DNA of 32,000 nt from Edaphobacter aggregans. GTDB lineage: Bacteria; Acidobacteriota; Terriglobia; Terriglobales; Acidobacteriaceae. The position numbers and the translations under genes were made by a program. The notes beneath the pieces were generated by a model. That model did no database searches, was not told the DNA's origin, and saw nothing but the letters and a program-made list of their open reading frames with translations. The stretch covers positions 1,050,001 through 1,082,000 of the forward strand of contig NZ_RSDW01000001.1 in the NCBI RefSeq assembly GCF_003945235.1, written 5' to 3'. This document shows positions 2,552 to 16,298 of the stretch, in pieces. Numbering within the stretch: the stretch's first letter is position 1; each line of letters opens with the position of its first letter.

Positions 2552-3319
2552 ATGGAGAGGCATACTTTTCGTCACGACGGACTGCGGCTCTCGTATCTCG
2601 ATTCGGGCGGTACAGGCCGAGTACTTATTGCCCTGCACGCGCACATCATGGAGGCCGTAACCTTTGCCCCTCTGGCCGAGGAGTTGGCCCCCAAATGGCG
2701 CATAATCGCACTCGACCAACGCGGCCACGGACACTCCGACCACGCCCCTACCTACACGCGTGACAACTATATTCGCGATCTGGAGGCCCTCTTCGAGCAC
2801 CTGAGTCTCACCGATGCCGTTCTCCTGGGCAACTCCCTCGGCGGAGTCAACGCATATCAGTTCGCCGCACGGCATCCCGACAAGATCCGTGGCCTCATCA
2901 TCGAAGACATCGGCGTCGAAATTGGAGATGACTTAGGTTTCGTGCTCGCCTGGGACGGCGAGTTTGCAACCCGAGAGGCCCTCGCGGAGTCTATAGGCCC
3001 ACGCTTCTTGCCCTACCTCAAAGACGCGTTCCGCGAGACCCCCACCGGCTGGAAACTAGCATTCGCCCCCCACGACATCGTAGCCTCCGGAAGATGCCTG
3101 GCAGGGAATCACTGGCAGGACTGGCTCGCCACCCAGTGCCCCGCCCTGTTCCTCCGCGGACGCGACAGTAACGTGACGACCCACGCCGCCACGGAGCGGA
3201 TGGTCGCCCGACGACCGAACACGCTTCTGGAAACGCTCGACGGCGGACACATCCTCCACTTCGATAACCCGATGGGCTTCGCAAACGCGGTACGAGAATT
3301 TCTACATCAGTTCGAATAA
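2552..3319 (+). CDS. alpha/beta-fold hydrolase
   Basis: HG-type oxyanion region (LIALHA), nucleophile elbow GNSLGG, and a C-terminal acid/His region (LDGGHILHFDNP). It starts 12 nt after the LytTR gene and is probably co-transcribed. Confidence 0.8.
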   Translation: MERHTFRHDGLRLSYLDSGGTGRVLIALHAHIMEAVTFAPLAEELAPKWRIIALDQRGHGHSDHAPTYTRDNYIRDLEALFEHLSLTDAVLLGNSLGGVNAYQFAARHPDKIRGLIIEDIGVEIGDDLGFVLAWDGEFATREALAESIGPRFLPYLKDAFRETPTGWKLAFAPHDIVASGRCLAGNHWQDWLATQCPALFLRGRDSNVTTHAATERMVARRPNTLLETLDGGHILHFDNPMGFANAVREFLHQFE

Positions 3320-3514
3320 AGGCAGCGCGGACTCCCGCGTAAACGACAGTGGAGCACTTGACACACCCGATACTCCTACTAGCCATGGAAAGAGAAGCCC
3401 GCCAAAAACCCGACCCTTTCGTTGGACTAAACTCGCACGGAAGTCCGACATTAAGCCCATTACTTTGAATACTTTGGAACTTTTTTGTATACCAGGGGGG
3501 AGGCCCCCCGAAAG

Positions 3515-4591
3515 TCACAAGTCAGCATCCGCAGACGCCAGTTCCCTCACCCCCGACTTGAGCGCGTGAACGATGCCGGCAACGCGTTCCACGATAAGGC
3601 CGACCTGGTGGTCATTGTGGTAGCCATCCCGCTGGGCACGAGCATGTCCAGCCGCAGCAATACGGTTCCGCGCAGCCTCATCCGGCAGGTAACGCCGAAT
3701 CTTCTGGACGCACTCCTCGAAGCTCGAGAAAAAGACAGCCTCTTCGTCCTCGCGGAACCGCTGCAGATGACCATCAGAGCGTTCGGCCAGCAAAAATCCC
3801 CCGCAGCCAGCAATCTCGAAGCTCTTATGCACAAACTCGTCCTGATTGGAACGAGTAATGAAGCTGAGGTTGATCTTCGAGCGCCAGATGGCCTCACGGT
3901 ACTGCTGCTGATACAGTTCGCCCCCGCGATAGAGACCTGAAAAAGCCTCTGGCGAGAGCGCCCGCTGCCACGAACGCTGATTGCCCGAGATGACAACCTT
4001 GAACTCACTCGAAAGCCTGCTGAGCGTCTCGGCGCGGTCATCGTAAGGAGTACCCACAAAGGAGACCTCACGATTACGATCCTGATCGGACCAACCGCCC
4101 GGCGACGGAAAGTGGATCGTAGGCTCGTAGGCGGTTTGGATCTTGATGACGTCCCGCGCCCCCCGGCTTCGGTAGTCAGCAATGTTCTTGTCACGCTGGA
4201 CAACGTGAAGATCGTAATGAGGAATGTCCTTCATATATAGCCGCCAACCAGGATCGCGTCGTGGGCCGAAGGGGTTGTCGATCATGTAGCTGACAGTGAC
4301 AATGCCCAGTGCGCGAAGTCGATCGAGTGTGCCGGGCCGCATGGAAAGAAGCTTGTCGGCCCAGAGGATGTCAGGCTTCTCCTGCTGGGCGAGGCAAAGG
4401 ATGTCGTGATTGAGGCGATCGACCGAGGGTCCAGCAGCAAGACGAAAAGCGATCTTGCGAAGCACCGGATTATGCGGTTCGTAGTCGAAAGCGTTCAACG
4501 GGATAACGTGATGGCCGAGACGCTCCAAGGCCCACAGGCGATAGAGCGAGGAATCGTTTGGGGAGAGGCCCGTAGCGTAGAGAATCTTCAT
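3515..4591 (-). CDS. glycosyltransferase-like protein (CgeB/DUF3880-type)
   Basis: Full-length 358-aa ORF. The N-terminus MKILYATGLSP..LYRLWALERLGHHV and the C-terminal FEIAGCGGFLLAERSD...F..DEEAVFF resemble CgeB-family GT-B proteins. The family call is from memory of the sequence pattern. Confidence 0.6.
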   Translation of the reverse strand: MKILYATGLSPNDSSLYRLWALERLGHHVIPLNAFDYEPHNPVLRKIAFRLAAGPSVDRLNHDILCLAQQEKPDILWADKLLSMRPGTLDRLRALGIVTVSYMIDNPFGPRRDPGWRLYMKDIPHYDLHVVQRDKNIADYRSRGARDVIKIQTAYEPTIHFPSPGGWSDQDRNREVSFVGTPYDDRAETLSRLSSEFKVVISGNQRSWQRALSPEAFSGLYRGGELYQQQYREAIWRSKINLSFITRSNQDEFVHKSFEIAGCGGFLLAERSDGHLQRFREDEEAVFFSSFEECVQKIRRYLPDEAARNRIAAAGHARAQRDGYHNDHQVGLIVERVAGIVHALKSGVRELASADADL

Positions 4592-4779: not shown

Positions 4780-5523
4780 CTAATCCAGCAGGGTGACGCT
4801 GCCAGCGCCGAGGTCATAGTACCCGGCGACGACTTTAACCTTGCCTTCTTTCACCATAGCTGCGATGACAGTCGACCCCTCCCGGAGCAGCGCGGCCTGA
4901 ATCTTTGCGTTTGCCTTGGTAACGGCTACAACGTCCGGTCCTGCCTGGTTTACGGCCGGCCGGATATGCGGGAATAGTGCGCTGATCTGTCCAGGAACTT
5001 CATTGTTAGCGATTGCCGCCTTCATTGCTCCACACCCGGCATGCCCGAGTACAAGGATCACTTTTGTGCCCAATACGGCGGCACCAAACTCGTGGCTGGC
5101 GATGAGTTCGGGGGTGACAACATTGCCGGCTACACGGGTAACGAAGATATGACCGATGGTCTGATCGAAGATCAATTCGATCGGCACACGTGAGTCGGCA
5201 CAAGAGAGGACTGCTGCAAACGGCTCCTGCCCTTCTACTGTGTGTTGCCTCAGAATCGCGAGATCCTTTTCGCAATGAGTCATGTTGTTCGATATGAAAC
5301 GCCGATTGCCGTCCATGAGTTCCTTCAACGCAGCATCGGGGCTAGATATAGTTTGCGCGAGCGCCTGAGTGGGAAAGACGGATCTCATCGCTCCTGTTGT
5401 GAACAATCCCGCCATGGTTCCGGTCAGCGTGGTTTGCAGGAACCGCCGCCTGGAAGGACTGGGCGCGGTATGTGCATTGAAATCCTGATTCTCGTCGGAA
5501 TGCTGTTCGCTTGCATGTTTCAT
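4780..5523 (-). CDS. beta-class carbonic anhydrase with twin-arginine (Tat) signal peptide
   Basis: Zinc-ligand motifs CADSRVP and GHAGCGAM are present, as is the Tat motif SRRRFLQTTLTG. The ATG at 5523 is preceded by GGAAGGGGAAAAG. The listed 5583 start adds 20 aa without an RBS. Confidence 0.85.
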   Translation of the reverse strand: MKHASEQHSDENQDFNAHTAPSPSRRRFLQTTLTGTMAGLFTTGAMRSVFPTQALAQTISSPDAALKELMDGNRRFISNNMTHCEKDLAILRQHTVEGQEPFAAVLSCADSRVPIELIFDQTIGHIFVTRVAGNVVTPELIASHEFGAAVLGTKVILVLGHAGCGAMKAAIANNEVPGQISALFPHIRPAVNQAGPDVVAVTKANAKIQAALLREGSTVIAAMVKEGKVKVVAGYYDLGAGSVTLLD

Positions 5524-5607
5524 CTTTTCCCCTTCCGATACACGTTGTCTTCTGGTTGTCCCGGTCGGATTCTTTAGTCGCATTTAAGTGAGTCCTGATG
5601 GGTAAGT

Positions 5608-5928: not shown

Positions 5929-6471
5929 TCAGGCTGGCGAATCGACTAGTCTGCGCCCCTTAAGACCCATCATGAGGCGAGTGAGACCTGTCAGAAGCAT
6001 GCTGATGCCCACCAAGGTCCCCAAAGCCCAGAGAGAACTGACGGGCCAATGCTTCCATATCATCACGCCGAGGAGGAGAGTTACGATTCCGTGCAGCAGC
6101 AGCCATTCGGAGCCAACACTCTTGCGGGACCAAATAAAAGTGCCGATATCCGTAATGCCTTCTATGAAGAAAAAGACGGCAAGCATGAGGGTGAGACCGG
6201 CAAGTCCGATCAAGGGATGCACCAACAAGTACCCTCCGACAAAGATGTACAGAACGGAGACCAGAAGCTTCCAAATTTTGCTTCCGACACCTTCAGACTT
6301 GAAGGCATACACGAGCTGGATAATGCCCTCGAAGAGAATGAGCCATGAAAGCACCCTGGCGACTCCGATTGAGGCGAGCGCCGGCAAACTGATTGCGAGT
6401 ATTCCGAGGACTATGAGAAGAATCGCAAACCAGACGGATGATTTATAACTTTGCCGGGGCTCCGCACTCAT
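5929..6471 (-). CDS. HdeD-family (DUF308) acid-resistance-type membrane protein
   Basis: 180 aa with six hydrophobic segments and the family-typical start W..ILLIVLGILAI..P......V.....ILF.GI..L..AF. Confidence 0.7.
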   Translation of the reverse strand: MSAEPRQSYKSSVWFAILLIVLGILAISLPALASIGVARVLSWLILFEGIIQLVYAFKSEGVGSKIWKLLVSVLYIFVGGYLLVHPLIGLAGLTLMLAVFFFIEGITDIGTFIWSRKSVGSEWLLLHGIVTLLLGVMIWKHWPVSSLWALGTLVGISMLLTGLTRLMMGLKGRRLVDSPA

Positions 6472-6508
6472 ATCGATGTGTCTCCTGCTGGTATTTATGT
6501 CGACGTGT

Positions 6509-7108
6509 TTACCGGCTCGGTAGTGACGCTGGTTGCTGCAAGCGGAATTCGAGCAATGTGCCGGCAGGAATATTGATCTGCTCTCCTCTCGAAATCAGAG
6601 AACTCGCGCCTCCCCCAGCAGCACCGATCGCCGCTCCACGCCCTGCGTTTCCTCCGATCGCACCGATCACCGCCCCAAGACCAGCTCCGCCTGCGGTGCG
6701 CCGTGCTGTACCGCCGAGGGCATTGGCTCCCTGAACGCTATAGTCGTTGCTGAGAATCGGAAAGCGTGTGTTGTTGATTACAATGTCAGTTAGCTCCAGC
6801 GACAGTTCCGATCTCCCGGCTGCGCGTCCAGCGCCTGACGATTGAATGATTCGACCGTGAACCACGGCTCCAGCCGGGGCGGCAACAGTATTTCCAGACA
6901 TGACATTTGTCTCGAGGCGACCGGTAAACAAAGTACCGGCACGATTCCTGCCCGAGCCAATCGAATCCGTCATACGGATCAAGAGCCGTGTTCCGGCTGG
7001 AACCGATATCATTCCTTGTTGTGCCCTTGCCGATGTGATCGCCGCAGCGCACAAAAATATCAGAAGTGTGGCTAGCGAGCTTTTACGGAATTGCAATAAC
7101 TTTTTCAT
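6509..7108 (-). CDS. secreted protein with beta-rich N-domain and C-terminal glycine-zipper
   Basis: Signal peptide MKKLLQFRKSSLATLLIFLCAAAITSARAQ. Repeated P-A-G-T/A blocks (ISVPAGTRLLIRM, VAAPAGAVVHGRI, INIPAGTLLEF). Glycine zipper GGAGLGAVIGAIGGNAGRGAAIGAAGGGA. Confidence 0.6.
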   Translation of the reverse strand: MKKLLQFRKSSLATLLIFLCAAAITSARAQQGMISVPAGTRLLIRMTDSIGSGRNRAGTLFTGRLETNVMSGNTVAAPAGAVVHGRIIQSSGAGRAAGRSELSLELTDIVINNTRFPILSNDYSVQGANALGGTARRTAGGAGLGAVIGAIGGNAGRGAAIGAAGGGASSLISRGEQINIPAGTLLEFRLQQPASLPSR

Positions 7109-7158
7109 CTCTCAAATCCTTCCTGCCTTAGCGTGGCTGTGGGTTAATCCCGTTTCGA

Positions 7159-7668
7159 TCACGATTGATTTGCGGGCAGCTTTGAAGCAACTTGAAGATC
7201 GTAGATGTGCTGCAGCTGGCTATCGACTTCGAAGAATTTAGTGGCGATTTCTGCGGACAGGGCCTTCTTCATGGTGTCGTAATACTTCTTCCGCAGTTCG
7301 GCACGCTGTGTTTCTAGCTCAAGCGACTTACTCATCACTTGATCGGCCGCATCATCGGAAATGCTCGGATAATCCTTGGCGTAATCGCTCATTAGTTGAG
7401 CCTCGGCGTCATCCAACTTCGCCCGCTCCGCTTCATAGTCCTTGTAAATCGGCCAAAATGTTTGGGAATCTGCGTCGCTAAGGTGCATGATCTCCTTGAC
7501 GAGCATCTCCCTCTTCGCATTGACGTCCATCCTGAGGAGCTTCTCGTATGCCTGGAGATTGAGTTCCTTATCGCTAGTCGTCTTCGGATCTTTCGCAAAA
7601 GTAGACTGTGTTGCCAGAAACGGCAAAGCGACGACGCAGACTAATAGGGTTCCTTTGATTGTTTTCAT
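7159..7668 (-). CDS. secreted all-helical hypothetical protein
   Basis: Signal peptide MKTIKGTLLVCVVALPFLATQSTFA. The remainder is charged and helical (E/K/D/A/L rich). I recognise no family. Confidence 0.5.
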   Translation of the reverse strand: MKTIKGTLLVCVVALPFLATQSTFAKDPKTTSDKELNLQAYEKLLRMDVNAKREMLVKEIMHLSDADSQTFWPIYKDYEAERAKLDDAEAQLMSDYAKDYPSISDDAADQVMSKSLELETQRAELRKKYYDTMKKALSAEIATKFFEVDSQLQHIYDLQVASKLPANQS

Positions 7669-7782
7669 GCCGTACCACCTTTCACAAGATTGTTAGGGCT
7701 TGTGTGTCCCATCTCACGAGACACGGTTTTGCTCTCGCAATCTTCCAGCCGCAGGCAGACTGCGAGAGCGTCACGTGGTTAT

Positions 7783-8772
7783 TCATCTTTCCCCCGCCGC
7801 CGGCACCCATCCGCTATCAGCGGATATCAACTCCACGCCGGCTACGCTGGTGCTTATGTTGAATGATCGCAAACCAGCCCGCCTATCGGGTCGGGCTCCA
7901 AACTCCAGGAGAAACTGGTTATCGAGGCTATTTTGTAGACGATCCAGAAATGGTCTGAAACTGACCGGAGCCTGGAGTCCGAGGAAGAAAGCTTCACCGC
8001 CGGTCCGATCTGACAACTGTGCCATAGCATTCTGTCCGTTGGTTGCTTCCCAGAAGTTTCGATGCATGTGTCCAACCCCAGGGGTGTATAGCCCATAGAT
8101 GATGGTTCCTGTCCGTTGGGCAATATTGGCTGTGGTAGTCACGTCGGGAATAGTGTTGAGACCGCGAGTGGGTGTTGTACGTCTGGCCCGATCGATTCCG
8201 TCCGTGATCATAACCAGTGCCCGACGGTTCGCATGTTGAGGCCAACGATTCATCAGGTCGTTCGCAGAAAGATAGGGACTGCCGAACGCTCCCGCATTAC
8301 GCAAAGGCAATCGCAGGGCGTTGGCCGCCAGAGCATGATCCGTTGTAAAGTTCTGGGCGATTTGCACCGTGGCATTCCGCATATAGCCAACACCGACTGA
8401 CGTAGATGGCGGCTGAGCGTTGATAAAGGCGCGTAGGTCGTTGAGCTGAGACCCCAAGCTCGTGTCGGAAGCGTCATCGATCAGGATAAAAAGATCGAGT
8501 CCGGCTGCCGCTCCGCGCGCAGGCACCCATTTGGTGACGCGCAGTGTCTCTCGGCGCTGCCTCACGCTCACATCATTCTGGCTTACAGTAGGCGCGCTCC
8601 CATCACTCAAACCGGATGCGGTTACGGTCATTCGCACAGGGACTGTAGGCCCAGCTGCCTCTTGCTGTGCAGTTTCCTGCGCGCGCGCCGCAAAAACGGT
8701 CGCAAATATCAAAATGAAAAGAGTAAGAACCTCACGTCTGATACGGTACTGTTTCATCCGATCCTCCTTCAT
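7783..8772 (-). CDS. secreted von Willebrand factor A (VWA) domain protein, Acidobacteria-type
   Basis: Signal peptide ...LTLFILIFATVFAARAQ. MIDAS-like LFILIDDASDTS and a later VMITDGIDR. An alternative start at 8757 (MKQYRI) has the better RBS (AAGGAGG). Confidence 0.75.
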   Translation of the reverse strand: MKEDRMKQYRIRREVLTLFILIFATVFAARAQETAQQEAAGPTVPVRMTVTASGLSDGSAPTVSQNDVSVRQRRETLRVTKWVPARGAAAGLDLFILIDDASDTSLGSQLNDLRAFINAQPPSTSVGVGYMRNATVQIAQNFTTDHALAANALRLPLRNAGAFGSPYLSANDLMNRWPQHANRRALVMITDGIDRARRTTPTRGLNTIPDVTTTANIAQRTGTIIYGLYTPGVGHMHRNFWEATNGQNAMAQLSDRTGGEAFFLGLQAPVSFRPFLDRLQNSLDNQFLLEFGARPDRRAGLRSFNISTSVAGVELISADSGWVPAAGER

Positions 8773-8897: not shown

Positions 8898-8944
8898 ACT
8901 ATAAAAACCTTTGTTAGATAGGGCAATTGGACCTTAGTCCAATC
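8898..8944 (-). promoter_or_regulatory. operator-plus-promoter upstream of the VWA gene
   Basis: Minus strand reads GATTGGACTAAGGTCCAATTGC (8944-8923, palindrome ATTGGAC-N4-GTCCAAT). It overlaps a -35 TTGCCC (8926-8921), followed by a 17-nt spacer and a -10 TATAGT (8903-8898). The 22-mer is identical to 14536-14557. Confidence 0.6.
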
Positions 8945-8950
8945 GGCGAT

Positions 8951-10918
8951 TCAGGCGTACGCAAAAAGCTCACGTGCCACTGCCAACGGCAGTTCCACCC
9001 TGAAAACAGACCCTCCTTCAGGTCGATTATCGAAGGTAATACGGCCTCCGAGAGAGTCAAGGATAGAACGGCAGATCGACAGTCCCATGCCGAGGCCTTC
9101 ACTCTTAGTCGTGAAGAAAGGCATAAACAATTTCATCTTGTCCTTTTCGGCGATGCCCGGACCATTGTCTTCCACAAGGATGATTCCACAGTTTGCGTCC
9201 GTCCCCATGCACGTCGTCACAGTGAGGACTCTTCCCTCTTGCGGTATATTTCGCATAGCGTCCATGCCATTGTTGATCAGATTCAAAATGACCTGTTGCA
9301 ATGGAATTTCATCACCCAGCACCTTCGGTACGGCGTCTGAAAGTATCAAGCGAAGCTCGACACCACGAAGGAGCGCATCTTTCCGCACAAGTCGGCTTAC
9401 ACCAGTTGCGATCTCATTGAGGTCTACCTCGTGACGAGCGATCGTTTGCTTCTTGAAGAGTGCCCGCATGTTCTCCAATACTGCCCGTGCCCGCTTATCA
9501 TCCTCTCGAATGTCGGCCAACGCTGCTCGGATTTCCAGCATGTCGGGCGAAGGCCTGGTGGCAAGACGTTCGGCTGCTTGCGCGTTCCCGAGGATCGCAG
9601 CCAATGGCTGGGCTAGTTCGTGCGCAAGTGAGGCAGCCATATGACCCATCGACGCTACACGGTTTAGATGAGAGATCTCTTCCAGTGCCAGTTGGCGTTC
9701 CAAAAGCTGCTGTGCCTTGGTCCTTCGTTTGATCAGCCAGATCAATAGAAATACTAGCGCCGTCTCAGCAACTAAGAAACCGAGCAAAGCGATAATTCTA
9801 TATTTGTATTTTTCCCAATCCGTCGGCTGCCGAAACAGGATCGTAGATTCGGGTGGAATCTTCGACTCCGAAATATCCCAGCGTCGTAGTTGCCGTGCGT
9901 CGAAGATGAATCCATTGGTGCCCACTACGGCAGGTATATCCTGCGGTTTCTCACCGCTCAGAATTCTGGATGCAATTTTGCCCGCCTCCCGGCCCTGGCC
10001 TGCAAAACTACTCACATAGCCGCCAACCGCTCCATGACCTATAAGAGTGTCAAACAGAACAAAGATCGGGGCATTGGCCACACTCGTTAGCATCTCGAGT
10101 GACGTAGCTCTTGGAAAATAAGTTTCGGCTGCATCTCGTTCGAGTGCGGTGTACAAGACGATCGTGTCACTGGGCAGGCGCTTCAGTCGCTCAATGAGCG
10201 CGGGCATGGCGAGGTCAGTGAGGTAGGTTATTTCAAGTTGAGATTCGTAGGTGGTGAGACTCTTTTTGACAGCGGCCTCAAGCTCTCTGTCATACAAGCC
10301 TGTGCCACCAACCACAACGACGTGTCTGGTAGTTGGAAGCAAACGCAGAGCCACGTCCAAAGTTCTTTCTGGCTGCCTGTTTAGCCAAACCCCTGTAAAG
10401 GAAGGGCCAAACTGCGGATTGCCTGCTTCCTCTTTTGTCGCGCCGCTGAAAACCACCGGAGTGTTTTTGAAGTAGGTTTCATGTGCCTCAACCATGAACT
10501 GAATCGGCGATGGCCCGGCAGCGATAATTAGATCGAGTTTGCGATCTTTATATTTGCGAATATAGGTTTCGCGGATCTGCTGTTGTGAAGCCTCATCTGG
10601 AAATAGACTCGTTTCCATCGACTCGGTATAGAGTTCAACCAGATAGGGTGATTCTTCATCCAGAGTGGCACGCAACTGAGGGTCAATCAAACGGAATGCG
10701 AGCGCCGAGGGCCCTGTCTCATAGATAATGAGGATCTTACGGACGCCATGCGCGGCTGTCGCTGCGGTCAGTTGAATTGAAAAAGTAAACGCTAGAAGAA
10801 TGAACACCGTGGCTGCACGCCACCGGCGATCGCGCTTGTCGGCAGAGATGCGCGATAAGAAGTGCCGATAGACGAGTCGTTCAACGGCCGGTATTCGATT
10901 ATCCAGATGGCCGGCCAA
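8951..10918 (-). CDS. sensor histidine kinase with periplasmic ABC-substrate-binding-like sensor domain
   Basis: One N-terminal TM segment, then a periplasmic domain of about 300 aa of the ABC_sub_bind type (KILIIYETGP...VVVVGGTG...). A second TM segment (IIALLGFLVAETALVFLLIWLI) follows, then H-box SLAHELAQPLAAI and HATPase boxes NLINNGMDA, DNGPGI and GLGMGLSI. The listed start is TTG and the true start is uncertain. Confidence 0.85.
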   Translation of the reverse strand: MAGHLDNRIPAVERLVYRHFLSRISADKRDRRWRAATVFILLAFTFSIQLTAATAAHGVRKILIIYETGPSALAFRLIDPQLRATLDEESPYLVELYTESMETSLFPDEASQQQIRETYIRKYKDRKLDLIIAAGPSPIQFMVEAHETYFKNTPVVFSGATKEEAGNPQFGPSFTGVWLNRQPERTLDVALRLLPTTRHVVVVGGTGLYDRELEAAVKKSLTTYESQLEITYLTDLAMPALIERLKRLPSDTIVLYTALERDAAETYFPRATSLEMLTSVANAPIFVLFDTLIGHGAVGGYVSSFAGQGREAGKIASRILSGEKPQDIPAVVGTNGFIFDARQLRRWDISESKIPPESTILFRQPTDWEKYKYRIIALLGFLVAETALVFLLIWLIKRRTKAQQLLERQLALEEISHLNRVASMGHMAASLAHELAQPLAAILGNAQAAERLATRPSPDMLEIRAALADIREDDKRARAVLENMRALFKKQTIARHEVDLNEIATGVSRLVRKDALLRGVELRLILSDAVPKVLGDEIPLQQVILNLINNGMDAMRNIPQEGRVLTVTTCMGTDANCGIILVEDNGPGIAEKDKMKLFMPFFTTKSEGLGMGLSICRSILDSLGGRITFDNRPEGGSVFRVELPLAVARELFAYA

Positions 10919-11087
10919 CGATGCACCTCCGACCCGCTTCGTAATTCGATTACAGACCTAGCAATGTCCACTGACACATACAACAAAATCAACAAGATAC
11001 GACGTCAACGATCTTTTGTAACCGACTGCAGGATTGTACTTATGAAGATTCTCTTCCTGAAGAAAAGGTTGCCTTTGCGCGCGCTCT

Positions 11088-11795
11088 TCATCCTGCTCTG
11101 AGGTAGAGAAGCAACTCGGCGTGTTCTAACGTAACCGGACAACATTTATTGTGAGCGTCACTATCCTTCGGAGATAGGTGGTGTCGAATTGCGAAGCGAA
11201 CGAGATCGGAATTAGTCTTCAGGTCAAACTCTTCCATGATGCGGTATTTGTGAAAGCTACGGTTCGCACAGCGATGATTAAGGACTGCCGCCACCTCTTT
11301 CATAGAGTGTCCTTCGGCTAAGAGCCGTAACACCTGTCTCTGACGTTGCGTAAGCTCTTTGGTGCGATCATGATGGGGGTCACGGACAAACTCATTCATC
11401 AATTTCTGCGCGATACTTTGGTGTCACATAGGTTCGTCCACCCAAAACTTCTCCTATAGCTCCATACCGGCGGATTTCTTCAAAAGATATCCAGACGACC
11501 AATGGCGCAAAGCCATAGAAGCAACGTCGGGGTCCTCATTCATCGTGAGAACGATAAGCTTGGTTTTGGGTAAGAGCTTTTTCAACTGCTGTCCAGCATC
11601 GAGTCCATTGAGCAATGGCATGGCATACTAAGATCCAACAAAAACAATATCGAGTTTCATCTCCAACGCAACTGAAAGCATGCTTCGACCATCCGACACC
11701 ATTTCGACAACGTGGCAATCAGGCTCGAGCAGGCTCTTGAACGCCTCGGCAACCATTGTGTGGTCATCTGCGATCAGAATTCTTGGCCTGTCCAT
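11088..11795 (-). pseudogene. degraded NarL/LuxR-type response regulator (premature stops plus frameshifts)
   Basis: The ATG at 11795 opens a receiver domain (MDRPRILIADDHTMVAEAFKSLLEP...LDIVFV). It hits an in-frame TAG at 11630-11628, where the phospho-acceptor Asp block should be; DLSMP reads in another frame. The same frame resumes (MPLLNGLDAGQQLKKLLPKTKLIVLTMNEDPDVA..GYLLKKSAG) to a second TAG at 11456-11454. The linker AIGEVLGGRTYVTPK is in a second frame and the LuxR HTH (TQRQRQVLRLLAEGHSMKEVAAVL) is in a third (listed ORF 11088..11402). Confidence 0.7.
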
Positions 11796-12185
11796 TCGCC
11801 CCCGAACCCTGCTTTACTAGACATGTTGTCCTAAAGAACCAAGATGTGGCTGCCCTCAAGACCTCACGAGCTCTAGTCACTTGCATTTCATAGAGCCACA
11901 ATTATGGGCGTCCTAAATGGTTTTCTCATCTGCTAAATCTGACAGGATTCCCGGAGCATTCTCCAAGAGCTACCGTAGCAGACTGAATATGTCGTCCCAC
12001 TTCAGTAAACTACGTTTGCAGTTGGATACATCGTGATTTTCAAAAGCCTCACAAGGCGACACGCTTCGTGAAAATGCACAACTCTCGAGCCAATAGATAA
12101 GACAACAGGATTCGAGAAATTATCCAGTATTCCAGCAAACACCGCTATCTTGAAACTGATCCACAATTTTTTTAGGAGGTGCTGC

Positions 12186-13307
12186 GTGCCAGGAGTGGAC
12201 TCAATATCTCTTCGCCTTCGCGAACCATACAGGCTGGTAGGAGTTTACAGAGTTCGCTTTATGAGCTCGTGCTTGGGCCTATTACTCTGTACTTGCCTCT
12301 GGGGTGTCTTTATGCCCGAAGTGTACGGGTCCACTCGCTTGAAGACCGATGTTGTCTACATGAAAAATGGAGACAAAATCACGTGTGAGATCCGTTCGCT
12401 CGAGCAAGGACAATTGACGATCAAACAGGAATATGCCAATTCCACAGTGGCCCTTGATTGGGAGAAAGTTGATCGAATCGAGACGCAGCAGCCATTCGTG
12501 GTAGCTGACACCCGAGGCAATGCCTTCAACGGAATTCTCTCAGAGAAAACTGATCAGAGTTTCCTTACCATCGTTGGAAGCACCACGGGCAAAATCTCAC
12601 ACGATGAGGTGGTCAGTATTCAGCAGACAGGAGAGACTTTTGTTCGACGACTGAAGGGATCGATCGACCTGGGGCTTGACTTTGCTCAATCGAACTCCCA
12701 AAAGAACCTGACACTACAGTCCGATCTCACCTACCAGGCCACGAGACAGTTCTTTGCAGTCACATCCAGTTCTCAGTTCACAAGTCAACAGGAGACCAAC
12801 AATACCAGTGAAACGACGGTCAAGAGTGAGTATTTTCACCAGCTTCGCAAGTCAAACTGGTACGGAGGAGGAATCGCAAACTTTCTTTCAAGCTCGGAGC
12901 AGCAGATCAGTTTACGTTCTACATTCGGGGGAGCCCTTGCGATCCGGCCTGTTTACACGAACAAGACGAATCTTTCGCTCATTGGTGCTCTCGCCTATAC
13001 CTCTGAGAAAGATGCATCGAATGCCACATCGACAGCAAGTACTCAGGCGCTCGACTCTGCTGTTGCGGTCCAATTTTCAACGTTCCGGTTCGACTCAACA
13101 AACTTTGCTACAACTGTGTGGATTTATCCGAGCCTGACTTCCCCAGGTCGGGTACGTATGACCATAAATCAGGACGTATATTACAAGTTCTACAAAGATT
13201 TCTATGTTCGTGCGAGCTTCTACAGTAACTACGATAACCGCCCCGTAGTAGGAGCTCCTTCGAATAACCTGGGTGCATCTTCGACAGTCGGATGGTCTTT
13301 TCGGTAA
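12186..13307 (+). CDS. DUF481-like outer-membrane beta-barrel protein
   Basis: The long ORF begins with a signal-like segment (SSCLGLLLCTCLWGVF) and an N-terminal VVYMKNGDKITCEIRSLEQGQLTI module. The remainder has alternating beta-strand character and is rich in S/T/N/Y/F, ending ...VGWSFR. The GTG at 12186 lies 6 nt after AGGAGG (12174-12179). Alternative starts are 12150 (TTG) and 12261 (ATG). Confidence 0.65.
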   Translation: MPGVDSISLRLREPYRLVGVYRVRFMSSCLGLLLCTCLWGVFMPEVYGSTRLKTDVVYMKNGDKITCEIRSLEQGQLTIKQEYANSTVALDWEKVDRIETQQPFVVADTRGNAFNGILSEKTDQSFLTIVGSTTGKISHDEVVSIQQTGETFVRRLKGSIDLGLDFAQSNSQKNLTLQSDLTYQATRQFFAVTSSSQFTSQQETNNTSETTVKSEYFHQLRKSNWYGGGIANFLSSSEQQISLRSTFGGALAIRPVYTNKTNLSLIGALAYTSEKDASNATSTASTQALDSAVAVQFSTFRFDSTNFATTVWIYPSLTSPGRVRMTINQDVYYKFYKDFYVRASFYSNYDNRPVVGAPSNNLGASSTVGWSFR

Positions 13308-13324
13308 AGCTCCAGACTTGTCTT

Positions 13325-13951
13325 TTACAACGACGGCAGATGGCCGCAAGCGCGCAAGCGTTCAACTAGTCGGACGATGTCAGTAACAGACTGTGCACCT
13401 AGCTTCTGCATGACCCTGCCACGCTGCACCTTGATCGTCTTTTCTGCCGTACCGAATTCACCGCCAATTTGCTTGTTCAGCATGCCTTGCGCCACGCGCA
13501 CACATACCTCCCGCTCTCTCAGAGTCAAGGTTTCGAAGACCGCGCGATCGCGGCCGAGCGTATCGAGACGAACACAGGCTTGTCGCGACCTGGCGAGCGC
13601 TGCATCCACGGCAGCAAGCAGTTGACTCGCATCGAAGGGCTTCGTGAGAAAGTCGACAGCGCCCGCTTTCATGGCGCGAACAGAGTCGGGGATATTAGCG
13701 TGACCACTGATGAAAACAATCGACATGCTTTCATGTGCTCGCGTTAGCACTTGCTGCAAATCGAGTCCGCTCATCTCAGGCATCTGAAGATCGAGGACGA
13801 CACATGCTGGGTCGGAATCGAGTTGCTGCCCCAGGAACTCTCGAGCGGAAGGATAGGTTCGGACCTGTCTACCGTGCGAGCGAAGAAGTCGCTCCACCGC
13901 ACAACGAACACTCAAGTCGTCGTCGATAACGTGAACTGTACCTTCTGTCAT
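13325..13951 (-). CDS. FixJ/NarL-family response regulator (receiver + LuxR-type HTH)
   Basis: Receiver motifs VHVIDDD, CVVLDLQMPEMSG and FLTKP. C-terminal HTH LTLREREVCVRVAQGMLNKQIGGEFGTAEKTIKVQRGRVMQKLG. Confidence 0.9.
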   Translation of the reverse strand: MTEGTVHVIDDDLSVRCAVERLLRSHGRQVRTYPSAREFLGQQLDSDPACVVLDLQMPEMSGLDLQQVLTRAHESMSIVFISGHANIPDSVRAMKAGAVDFLTKPFDASQLLAAVDAALARSRQACVRLDTLGRDRAVFETLTLREREVCVRVAQGMLNKQIGGEFGTAEKTIKVQRGRVMQKLGAQSVTDIVRLVERLRACGHLPSL

Positions 13952-14041: not shown

Positions 14042-14419
14042 CTATGTGATCACCTTGTTGATTAATGAAATCAATTGATTTTCATCTACGGGCTTTCTCA
14101 AGTAGGGGCTATCACCGATTCGGACACTCCAATCGGCGAAGTCGGACTCAGAGTGTGCGGTGACAAAAAGATGCGGAATCGGCGAGCCTAGTTCAATCAG
14201 GCGATCCCTCAGTTCAAAGCCATTCATCTCTGGAAGTTCAATATCAAGAATGAGGCAATGTATCTGCAACAGTTCGGGATCAGCTAATGCAGCTTCCGCG
14301 GATTCGTACGTGACACACTCAGAGCCACGAGCCCGGAACAAGCGGCTCATAGCTTTGCGTACAGAAAGGTCATCATCGACCAATCCAATGCGCGTCGCAG
14401 TTGGAAGACAGTCGATCAT
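14042..14419 (-). CDS. stand-alone receiver-domain response regulator
   Basis: Motifs IGLVDDD, CLILDIELPEMNG and YLRKP, with no output domain. The ATG at 14419 is one codon inside the listed TTG start at 14422. Confidence 0.85.
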   Translation of the reverse strand: MIDCLPTATRIGLVDDDLSVRKAMSRLFRARGSECVTYESAEAALADPELLQIHCLILDIELPEMNGFELRDRLIELGSPIPHLFVTAHSESDFADWSVRIGDSPYLRKPVDENQLISLINKVIT

Positions 14420-14449
14420 CAATTATGTGCAGCTATGCCCAGAAGTAGA

Positions 14450-14535: not shown

Positions 14536-14583
14536 GATTGGACTAAGGTCCAATTGCACCCCCTCCGAACGGGTTGTTATAGT
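14536..14583 (+). promoter_or_regulatory. operator-plus-promoter upstream of the sortase operon
   Basis: GATTGGACTAAGGTCCAATTGC (14536-14557) overlaps a -35 TTGCAC (14554-14559), followed by an 18-nt spacer and a -10 TATAGT (14578-14583). A second TATAGT lies at 14595-14600. The leader to the ATG at 14718 is about 130 nt. Confidence 0.6.
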
Positions 14584-14717: not shown

Positions 14718-15413
14718 ATGAAGTCTTATCGGCGACTCGAACGTGTCTTGTTGATTGCGGGTTTGGCCTTGCTAATAGTAAGCATCGTTGTGCGACTCAA
14801 CGGGTTGGTGATGGCACGGGCCGGGGTCTGGAGTTTTGAAGCGCATCAATCGGAGTCGGCGGACTCTGCCGGCGGGAAGCCAGAGAATTCTTCGCTCGAT
14901 TTCAGCCTTTGGTCGGAGAAACGAGTCCGCGCATACAAGGCTGCTTTGGGGATGAAGTTTGATGCGCCGTTGGCAGTTCTCGCTATTCCAAGGATAGGAC
15001 TTGAAGTGCCTGTATTCGACGGAACTGACGATCTGATTCTCAACCGGGGAGCGGGCAGGATTACAGGAACAGCAAAGCCGGGTCAACCAGGAAATATCGG
15101 CATAGCCGCGCACCGCGATGGTTTCTTTCGCGGCCTGAAGGACATTCGCGTGGGGGATCGCATCGAACTTCGGACACAGGGTGATGCGGCCCTCTACGCA
15201 GTCGACGATATAGAGATCGTGCAGCCTACCGACGTAACCGTACTACGGAATCGTTCAAGCCCTTCACTCACTCTGGTGACTTGCTATCCGTTCTACTTCG
15301 TCGGGGATGCCCCGCAACGTTACATAGTCCATGCATCAATTGTGGATTCCGACAAAACCGCCGCGTCTAAATTCAATTCTGCAGTTCAGAAGGAAAAGGA
15401 GCATACACAATGA
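14718..15413 (+). CDS. sortase-family transpeptidase (N-terminal membrane anchor)
   Basis: TM anchor VLLIAGLALLIVSIVVRL. Catalytic His in IGIAAHRDGF (codon 15111-15113), Cys in TLVTCYPF (codon 15282-15284) and Arg in QRYIVHA. Confidence 0.85.
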   Translation: MKSYRRLERVLLIAGLALLIVSIVVRLNGLVMARAGVWSFEAHQSESADSAGGKPENSSLDFSLWSEKRVRAYKAALGMKFDAPLAVLAIPRIGLEVPVFDGTDDLILNRGAGRITGTAKPGQPGNIGIAAHRDGFFRGLKDIRVGDRIELRTQGDAALYAVDDIEIVQPTDVTVLRNRSSPSLTLVTCYPFYFVGDAPQRYIVHASIVDSDKTAASKFNSAVQKEKEHTQ

Positions 15414-16201
15414 ACTTAAAAAATAGCTGGGCACATATTGGGCCGGTGCTTGCGGTGGGGACTCTTTGCGTAGTCCTCACTCCTAGCATAAGCGCTCAGG
15501 TACAAACGGAAACCGAAACCACCCATGGAAAGGCTACGCATGATGTACAGGTCGAGCGCGGCGAGGTCGTCATGGTGTCGGGCAATGACCTTATCGTAAA
15601 GAAGGATGATGGTCAGATTGTGCACATTCCCAATGTCCCGGAAAGCGCCCGGGTCAATGTGGATGGAAAGCAGCTTAGTGTTCACGAGTTGCAACCGGGC
15701 ATGAAGTTGCAACGCACAATCACGACGACAACGACTCCCCAAACCGTTACGACAACGCAAAACGTAACAGGAACCGTATGGCACGTCACCCCTCCAACCA
15801 GTGTGATCCTCCGGTTGGAAGATGGTACCAACCAGCAGTTCACTATCCCCAGGGGTCAGAAGTTCATGATCAATGGGCGGGAGACTGATGCTCGGGACTT
15901 GAGAAGGGGCATGACGATTACAGCTACCAGAATCGTCGAGGAGCCAATGACGGTGGTCACGCATCAGAGGGAAGTGACGGGCACGATGCCGCCGCCTCCA
16001 CCTGCTCCCCCTGCAAACACTCCGATCCTGATCGTTGTGTCGCGACCGACACCAGCACCTGCAGCCGCTGCCGAGGCTGAGGCGCCGGCCAAGTTGCCTA
16101 AGACTGGATCGATTGTGCCTTCCATCGGGCTCCTGGGGATCGTGTTCCTGGGCGCGTCGTTTGGTTTGACGATGTTCCGGAAGTTACGCGCTGTGGCTTA
16201 G
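15410..16201 (+). CDS. secreted LPKTG-motif protein (predicted sortase substrate)
   Basis: Signal peptide ...LCVVLTPSISA/QV, then two related beta-rich modules, a Thr-rich linker and a Pro/Ala-rich spacer. The C-terminal sorting signal is LPKTG (16094-16108), 23 hydrophobic residues, then RKLRAVA. ATGA overlap with the sortase stop. Confidence 0.85.
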   Translation: MNLKNSWAHIGPVLAVGTLCVVLTPSISAQVQTETETTHGKATHDVQVERGEVVMVSGNDLIVKKDDGQIVHIPNVPESARVNVDGKQLSVHELQPGMKLQRTITTTTTPQTVTTTQNVTGTVWHVTPPTSVILRLEDGTNQQFTIPRGQKFMINGRETDARDLRRGMTITATRIVEEPMTVVTHQREVTGTMPPPPPAPPANTPILIVVSRPTPAPAAAAEAEAPAKLPKTGSIVPSIGLLGIVFLGASFGLTMFRKLRAVA

Positions 16202-16261
16202 GAAGTATATGGCCCTCTGGTAAGTACGGTGGGCCGTTCTTCTCTTCTCAGTTAGAAGTTA

Positions 16262-16298
16262 TTTGACCCTTCCGTCCGCAATGGATGGAAGGGTCAAA
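16262..16298 (+). terminator. strong stem-loop after the sortase operon (no U-tract)
   Basis: TTTGACCCTTCC (16262-16273), a 13-nt loop, then GGAAGGGTCAAA (16287-16298) form a perfect 12-bp stem. No T-run follows on either strand, so intrinsic-terminator function is uncertain. Confidence 0.35.

Follow-up and report, generated by a model that had tools for sequence, protein, structure and literature searches.

A conserved class-D-like sortase and its LPxTG-tailed partner protein in Terriglobia, with a possible role at periplasmic peptidoglycan

In a 32,000-nt window of the Edaphobacter aggregans genome (contig NZ_RSDW01000001.1, positions 1,050,001 to 1,082,000; coordinates below are those of the window), two adjacent genes encode a sortase and a secreted protein with an LPKTG sorting signal. 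Sortases are textbook Gram-positive enzymes, and the original prediction, made from the letters of this stretch, proposed that here a sortase serves a single substrate in a host with an outer membrane. The sortase gene (14718-15413, + strand) encodes 231 aa, with a membrane anchor at residues ~11-33 and an extracytoplasmic sortase domain at residues 84-209. The N-terminal hydrophobic stretch, RVLLIAGLALLIVSIVV, lies ahead of the catalytic domain, a topology read from the sequence. In hidden Markov model (HMM) searches, the open reading frame (ORF) matched the Pfam Sortase family PF04203 with 103.4 bits (cut-off 26.6) and TIGR01076 with 85.9 bits (cut-off 39.35). The catalytic residues His132 (IAAHRDG), Cys189 (TLVTC) and Arg201 (QRYIVHA) occur in canonical order and were invariant in all 16 orthologues aligned (57-94% identity). 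The predicted anchored sortase with its His, Cys and Arg landmarks is therefore borne out by significant family matches and an invariant triad.

We then placed the enzyme among the sortase classes. The best NCBIfam class models were SrtD (NF058671; 138.5 bits, cut-off 140) and class D (NF033746; 121.1 bits, cut-off 165), and the model for the proteobacterial class GN/marine sortases (TIGR03784) gave 79.5 bits and did not reach its cut-off of 158.25. The closest solved relative in the PDB was the class D SrtD of Bacillus anthracis (2LN7; E 5e-20, 75 bits), with near-identical TLxTCYPFxxxGDAPxRYI active-site strands, followed by Clostridium perfringens SrtD (4D70; 56.5 bits), class C (~56 bits), class E (at most 48 bits) and class A enzymes (at most 40 bits). 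In agreement, PGAP labels close homologues 'class D sortase'. As judged from these scores, the enzyme is class-D-like yet formally outside all curated classes, and it is clearly not of the proteobacterial GN type.

The substrate gene (15410-16201, + strand) follows the sortase gene and encodes a secreted protein of 263 aa. Its signal peptide, as read from the sequence, spans residues 1-29 (...LTPSISA, then QVQ), and no lipobox was found in the translation. The sorting signal (16094-16198) consists of LPKTG (16094-16108), a 23-residue hydrophobic helix (16109-16177) and the basic tail RKLRAVA (16178-16198), and it scored 18.4 bits against the LPXTG_anchor model TIGR01167, above the cut-off of 15.9. 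Motif, helix and basic tail were kept in orthologues down to ~35% identity. Furthermore, the substrate family comprises 1168 clusters at 50% identity (E<=1e-3), and most full-length cluster representatives carry the signal. Hence the textbook sorting signal that had been proposed for this protein is recovered by the profile, and comparison across related genomes shows its C-terminal tail to be conserved. The start of the mature protein was also well kept: Q30 and V31, mostly with QT next (nt 15497-15505), were invariant among the substrate orthologues of at least 60% identity (alignment A1). Invariance directly after a signal peptidase site is unusual, and an N-terminal Gln could cyclise to pyroglutamate.

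Searches of Pfam and NCBIfam returned no family for the substrate beyond the LPXTG anchor, and a PDB sequence search with the substrate family profile found nothing under E 0.48. Therefore, structure was approached by AlphaFold2 (AF2) modelling. A first model from 24 close sequences was poor (predicted local distance difference test, pLDDT, 56); a model from a 62-sequence alignment reached a mean pLDDT of 84.9, with values >90 over residues 33-195. The latter shows two small all-beta modules linked by long strands, plus a C-terminal helix. Module 1 covers residues ~44-108 (nt 15539-15733) and module 2 residues ~113-182 (nt 15746-15955). BLASTP between the two modules was not significant, and the duplication became visible by profile-profile comparison (hhalign probability 99.5%, E 4.6e-23). 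A conserved Pro-rich stalk follows (residues ~192-228, nt 15983-16093); the Pro/Ala-rich region was modelled at low confidence (residues ~192-235) but holds a conserved PPPPPxPPAxxPILIV motif. The substrate is thus modelled as a tandem duplication of a ~65-aa beta-barrel module with a conserved Pro-rich stalk, and the two small beta modules and Pro-rich spacer that had been read from the sequence agree with both the confident model and hhalign. Foldseek against the PDB returned generic di-Mop/TOBE/EF-P/OB-like tandem barrels (best E 9.5e-4, TM ~0.16-0.31, rmsd >20 A). We did not infer molybdate or ligand binding from these matches, because they are generic and superpose poorly overall; they indicate a fold class, not a function. 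Conserved positions in the wider family were mostly Gly and hydrophobic core residues, and none was of a conserved catalytic type. The protein is therefore expected to be structural or binding rather than an enzyme. This substrate family is previously undescribed in the literature or in Pfam/NCBIfam.

To place the two genes in a wider context, substrate relatives were sought in one genome per species (185,579 genomes), which gave 398 genomes with a relative. The best 80 of these 398, together with the window, form a set of 81 loci (labelled L001 onwards). A same-strand sortase gene lay directly upstream of the substrate gene in 66 of the 81 loci, or in 67 when one locus cut by a contig end is included. 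The reciprocal test used separate metagenome contigs anchored on the sortase: among 70 informative loci, a substrate gene was directly downstream in 63, elsewhere in the locus in three and absent in four. The tail motif was LPKTG in 41 of the 81 loci, LPKTA in 25 and another LPxT[GA] in 10. The motif is gone from four intact paralogues (L039, L073, L076 and L079), which end in a plain C-terminal transmembrane (TM) helix with a basic tail and are thus a naturally tail-anchored form of the protein; in each of these four the adjacent sortase gene is also missing (4/4; Fisher p = 4.5e-4, without phylogeny correction). By these comparisons of gene order and motif, the two genes form a dedicated system that has been conserved, and are not neighbours by chance.

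A six-frame tail scan showed that the LPKTG tail is the sole credible one in the 32 kb, since two other regex matches were antisense ORFs within real genes, and 0.94 Mb of related genome loci contained no further LPxT[GAS]-tailed ORF. Several genomes carry two or three substrate paralogues, and some hold one copy with and one without an adjacent sortase gene. Therefore, the proposed 'single substrate' is retained in the sense of a single substrate family. As side observations, L006 has a second sortase gene directly downstream of the substrate gene (6917-7666), L077 has a sortase fragment in the same locus (3260-3598), and L005, L076 and L077 each have two substrate-family genes within 12 kb.

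At the junction of the two genes (15396-15413, + strand), a Shine-Dalgarno sequence (AAGGAG, 15396-15401) lies inside the 3' end of the sortase gene and is separated from the second ATG by 8 nt, and the sortase stop overlaps the substrate start by 4 nt (ATGA, 15410-15413), exactly as originally described. This ATGA overlap was present in only 20 of the 66 pairs, the rest mostly having 50-100-nt gaps. Co-transcription thus appears conserved and translational coupling lineage-specific, so that the coupling first proposed for the pair applies here but not across the family. Just past the substrate stop, two stable hairpins (16209-16298, + strand; RNA fold -56.1 kcal/mol, z = -6.1 vs shuffles) probably mark the end of the bicistronic operon; the first (~16209-16237) is followed by a pyrimidine-rich run. 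The second (16262-16298) is an inverted repeat with 16-nt arms (TTTGACCCTTCCGTCC/GGATGGAAGGGTCAAA) and no U-tract, and it may serve as a further terminator or bind a protein.

We next considered the host. The closest homologues of both proteins came from soil metagenomes (80-99% identity) and from metagenome-assembled genomes (MAGs) named Edaphobacter, Silvibacterium, Acidobacteriaceae or Terriglobales, and the genes flanking the pair in the window were syntenic with the closest relative genomes. The best 80 of the 398 substrate relatives were almost all Terriglobia. Genes for RND/HlyD tripartite pumps occur in related loci, as does a gene of the Phenol_MetA_deg family, whose members are described as outer-membrane channels. 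Acidobacteria are counted among the diderm bacteria without Lpp (PMC8263019). In agreement with the original prediction, the host is therefore a diderm, although two of the window features first read as pointing that way did not hold: the 'DUF481-like barrel' (12150-13307) had no Pfam or NCBIfam match even at E<=1, and the 'Acidobacteria-type VWA' protein (7783-8772) scored 48.9 bits against TIGR03436, below the cut-off of 81.25. Three sortase-substrate loci (L054, L068 and L078) were in MAGs binned as Candidatus Binatia or Eremiobacterota (Aquilonibacter, Baltobacteraceae), and these are either mis-binned contigs or a lateral spread beyond Acidobacteriota.

Signal transduction genes adjoin the pair. 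A stand-alone receiver (REC) gene (14042-14422, - strand; Pfam Response_reg 69.9 bits) is divergent from the sortase gene. On the same strand lies a gene for a LuxR/NarL-type response regulator with REC and GerE helix-turn-helix (HTH) domains (13325-13951; Response_reg 92.5 bits, GerE 52 bits), which is syntenic in L001, L003, L010, L017 and L065. A sensor histidine kinase gene (8951-10918, - strand; Pfam HATPase_c, HisKA and ABC_sub_bind) encodes a periplasmic ABC_sub_bind-like sensor, resembling periplasmic binding proteins (PBPs), and similar kinases adjoin the sortase pair in distant loci, for example L063. In 'Acidoferrales' genomes, the kinase, LuxR regulator, REC, sortase and substrate genes follow one another in this order, all on one strand. 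A REC gene was found immediately upstream of the sortase gene in 29 of 65 pair loci (18 co-directional, 11 divergent), and a response regulator gene lay within 6 kb in 42 of the 65, compared with 3 of 16 loci lacking a sortase (p = 0.0015). Between lineages, the sortase-adjacent REC genes were only weakly similar (50-80 bits vs ~60 for unrelated REC domains).

A putative operator/promoter of the sortase operon (14537-14583, + strand) was identified in the 296-nt intergenic region. It consists of a perfect palindrome (ATTGGAC-TAAG-GTCCAAT, 14537-14554), a -35-like TTGCAC (14554-14559), an 18-nt spacer and a -10-like TATAGT (14578-14583). The palindrome was kept in L001, L002, L003 and L065 while its flanks diverge. 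A scan for consensus promoters missed the proposed promoter because its -35 element matches at 3/6 positions. A second putative operator/promoter (8898-8943, - strand) is upstream of 7783-8772, with ATTGGACTAAGGTCCAAT at 8943-8926, TTGCCC, an 18-nt spacer and TATAGT at 8903-8898, and this copy was kept in L001, L003, L010, L017 and L065. ATTGGACTAAGGTCCAAT occurs twice in the window, compared with 0.12 occurrences expected by chance, and both copies are followed by TTGCNC, 18 nt and TATAGT; both sites were conserved in L001, L003 and L065. The LuxR-type regulator encoded between the two sites is, from its position and domains, the likely candidate to bind the palindrome. Rfam at gathering thresholds returned nothing anywhere in the window.

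The second site precedes a putatively co-regulated envelope operon (5929-8772, - strand) that encodes the VWA-like protein (7783-8772), which has no LPxTG tail, a secreted helical 169-aa protein (7159-7668), a Gly-zipper protein (6509-7108; Gly-zipper 23.9 bits) and a DUF308/HdeD-like membrane protein (5929-6471; DUF308 85.5 bits). The common palindrome suggests a small envelope regulon that includes this operon, with membership assigned by the shared operator. As the palindrome is common to an envelope-protein operon, the substrate may support or protect the envelope rather than act as an enzyme.

Further features of this neighbourhood were noted. Three ORF fragments of a NarL/LuxR-type regulator (11088-11795, - strand), namely the N-terminal part of REC (11628-11795), its C-terminal part (11454-11621) and a GerE HTH (11088-11402), appear to be a frameshifted pseudogene. 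They lie in a ~2.4-kb segment (~10919-13324) between the kinase and regulator genes with a GC content of 0.47-0.49, compared with 0.52-0.57 nearby. The segment also contains the ORF at 12150-13307 (385 aa, no family match), whose C-terminus (...GWSFR) resembles that of a beta-barrel. The syntenic loci L001, L003 and L065 lack this segment and have ~200 nt between their kinase and regulator genes; it is probably an insertion. In the distant Terriglobia locus L020 (5165-10051), and also in L053 and L075, one or two genes for ~340-aa VWA-like proteins and a beta-carbonic anhydrase gene lie downstream of the pair on its own strand. Those VWA-like proteins are 40% identical to the product of 7783-8772, and the window has both gene types a few kb off (4780-5583 and 7783-8772). 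Loose recurrent neighbours in other loci were SulP/STAS, bestrophin-like, MscS, DUF3300/DUF2950 and RND genes. A link to carbonic anhydrase, SulP and bestrophin (pH or bicarbonate) as part of the system was set aside, as these genes occurred in 6-11 of 80 loci.

Comparison with known systems gave one close analogue. In B. anthracis, the class D enzyme SrtC cleaves LPNTA, uses m-diaminopimelate (m-Dpm, below m-DAP) and fixes BasH in a peptidoglycan compartment that has a membrane on either side; its operon order is basI-srtC-sctR-sctS (PMC3297441). Both systems have a class D or class-D-like enzyme with a small dedicated LPxTA/G substrate gene beside it, here encoding LPKT[G/A]S, and a two-component system in the cluster (in B. 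anthracis, locus L081); here such a system adjoins the pair in about half of the loci and is of another regulator subfamily. In contrast to B. anthracis, the host here is a diderm that does not sporulate, the sortase gene comes first so that the gene order is reversed, and the substrate has no homology to BasI (hhalign probability 2.7%). We rejected an 'orthologous cassette', since BasI is unrelated and SctRS belong to another subfamily, and kept an analogous architecture. The C. perfringens SrtD is likewise a class D fold relative (4D70, E 2.7e-14), but its host is Gram-positive and the sequence relation is weaker than to B. anthracis SrtD. This enzyme prefers LPQTGS, which resembles the LPKTGS found here.

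Among Gram-negative bacteria, the proteobacterial class GN/marine system (TIGR03784) shares with our pair the arrangement of one sortase and one adjacent target. Known from comparative genomics only (PMC3237569, PMC8225981), it was correctly described in the original prediction as a one-sortase/one-target pair whose target has a VWA domain (Haft 2011, PMC3237569). The proposed difference from our pair also holds: the sortase falls far below the TIGR03784 cut-off, and where the GN target has a VWA/vault-like domain, the substrate here has two small beta-barrels and no Pfam domain. A VWA-like gene nearby shares the operator but its product lacks an LPxTG tail. The PEP-CTERM/exosortase, GlyGly-CTERM/rhombosortase and MYXO-CTERM/myxosortase systems have a similar tripartite signal (motif, TM helix, basic residues) in Gram-negatives, but their enzymes are unrelated and polytopic and recognise other motifs, unlike the classical sortase and LPXTG here. 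In such C-terminal sorting systems, adjacency is the rule for a single target (PMC3237569). Finally, links made by L,D-transpeptidases (LDTs), which join Lpp and outer-membrane proteins to m-DAP, are the only established covalent protein-peptidoglycan route in diderms (PMC8263019). The product that we propose would be like Lpp in having its C-terminal residue joined to m-DAP in the periplasm. It differs in that the Lpp enzyme is a YkuD LDT rather than a sortase and in that the substrate here has no lipid anchor, and a role in outer-membrane tethering is pure speculation.

On balance, we favour a Terriglobia class-D-like sortase system in which the substrate would be joined to m-DAP peptidoglycan inside the periplasm, a reading that combines the conserved sequences with the class D precedent. 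From their sequences, both proteins are predicted to be exported or anchored at the cytoplasmic membrane. The substrate would be exported by Sec and then retained by its C-terminal helix and basic tail. Cys189 would attack the Thr-Gly bond of LPKT/G (Thr-Ala in orthologues) to form a thioester, and the side-chain amine of m-DAP on lipid II would resolve it. The mature protein would then be built covalently into the periplasmic peptidoglycan, with the ~40-residue Pro-rich stalk projecting the two OB/Mop-like barrels away from the glycan layer. In this lineage, the adjacent two-component system (periplasmic-sensing kinase, LuxR-type regulator and stand-alone REC) probably switches the operon on via the 18-bp palindrome. 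m-DAP is a residue typical of Gram-negative peptidoglycan. It is also the nucleophile of the B. anthracis class D enzyme (PMC3297441). Since the enzyme is class-D-like and class D enzymes use m-DAP, the acceptor, which had been called unclear for a diderm, need not be mysterious if the analogy holds, and attachment to peptidoglycan is what we infer from it.

The evidence above also bears on other readings. If the sortase does process the substrate, the acyl-enzyme could be resolved on an acceptor other than peptidoglycan, such as water (soluble release), a protein amine, a lipid head group or a polysaccharide, much as T9SS (type IX secretion system) PorU, exosortase and rhombosortase re-attach or release their targets in Gram-negatives. 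We regard this as a credible but unlikely outcome. It fits with the diderm PEP-CTERM/exosortase, GlyGly-CTERM/rhombosortase and T9SS systems, which do not use peptidoglycan (PMC3237569), and with a list of diderm links that are LDT-mediated only, no sortase-peptidoglycan link having been reported (PMC8263019); the co-regulated or neighbouring VWA-like proteins could be the partners or acceptors. However, the class D relatives use m-DAP, and this residue should be accessible on the outer face of the inner membrane; a Pro-rich segment ahead of LPxTG is the classical wall-spanning design. Moreover, apart from those of pilus assembly, every true sortase characterised to our knowledge uses a cross-bridge amine of lipid II. 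Polymerisation of the substrate into a fibre or pilus-like chain in the style of class C, with Thr joined to a Lys of the next subunit, seems improbable. The class C sortases are the second-best PDB relatives (~56 bits), Lys99 is invariant in alignment A1, the modules are elongated and beta-rich, and some loci have two or three substrate paralogues or a second sortase (L005, L006, L077). Nevertheless, Lys99 is not conserved in the wider family (i.e. not at >=90%), and by eye alignments A1 and A3 showed no YPKN-like pilin motif or E-box. Most genomes have one substrate gene, usually one per locus unlike in class C pilus systems, and no separate tip or base subunits. A fibre would also be trapped under the outer membrane, and no secretin or usher gene was linked in the loci.

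A more sceptical view is that the pair is an inactive relic of a transfer from Firmicutes, with the substrate merely tail-anchored in the inner membrane. The similarity of the sortase to Firmicute class D enzymes and the existence of TM-only paralogues agree with this, but intact ORFs are widely kept (~398 species genomes). Across homologues reaching down to 35-57% identity, the triad does not vary and LPxT[GA] hardly does, loss of the motif is confined to genes that have no sortase gene next to them, and with a GC content of 0.52-0.57 the pair matches the DNA around it. A relic is therefore very unlikely. It is more doubtful still, to the point of being hardly credible, that the host is a monoderm or mis-assigned and the locus an ordinary Gram-positive one. 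The window does lack an unambiguous outer-membrane marker, its 'DUF481-like' ORF having no family match; against this, homologues of 76-86% identity, named or on a named contig, come from Edaphobacter, Silvibacterium and Acidobacteriaceae, including 1.2-Mb contigs, the flanking genes are syntenic with those genomes, and there are the RND/HlyD pump and Phenol_MetA_deg genes of related loci and the diderm status of Acidobacteria (PMC8263019).

Several observations count against attachment to m-DAP peptidoglycan under two-component control. The sortase scores under every curated class cut-off (SrtD 138.5 vs 140; class D 121.1 vs 165), and class D properties are therefore transferred to it by analogy. 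A literature search on the peptidoglycan type of Acidobacteriaceae found no statement. As seen from the TM-only paralogues, processing by a sortase is not essential for the protein to work. The regulators here are of the LuxR/GerE type, with a stand-alone REC and a kinase with a PBP-like sensor, whereas the B. anthracis SctRS are OmpR/Trans_reg_C-type with a HAMP kinase; as both the two-component subfamily and the gene order differ, the resemblance of the cassettes may be convergent. In addition, the operator is confined to Acidobacteriaceae relatives, and we infer its link to the regulator. Taken as a whole, the account in which a true sortase builds a stalked two-barrel protein into the thin periplasmic peptidoglycan under envelope-sensing two-component control is offered tentatively, at somewhat less than even confidence.

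Automatic annotation had already labelled the two genes 'class D sortase' and 'LPXTG cell wall anchor domain-containing protein', and sortase COG counts in Acidobacteria (Solibacter) were tabulated in 2011 (PMC3174227). That Solibacter table was the sole mention returned by our literature search, which found no study of an Acidobacterial sortase, of the substrate family or of its regulation. Reviews cite only the proteobacterial Gram-negative sortases, as 'not well characterized' (PMC8225981). What a sortase does under an outer membrane has been a purely genomic question since the early 2000s, with proteobacterial examples that have no demonstrated function. The locus described here defines a second, unrelated Gram-negative sortase system, with a class-D-like enzyme, a new substrate family and a candidate regulator and operator, and it is spread over ~398 species genomes of a class that is abundant in soil. 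Protein ligation could also profit from a sortase that is specific for m-DAP and recognises LPKT[G/A]S. The substrate might keep peptidoglycan and a membrane apart or tether them to each other, or it might be induced by stress to reinforce the envelope. If the proposed mechanism is true, this would be the first protein-peptidoglycan link made by a sortase in a diderm and a second independent solution, beside L,D-transpeptidase and Lpp, for decorating or bracing the sacculus, in a phylum without Lpp. With one enzyme, one substrate and one motif, the pair offers a compact testable model for periplasmic sortase attachment and for the organisation of the Acidobacteria envelope.

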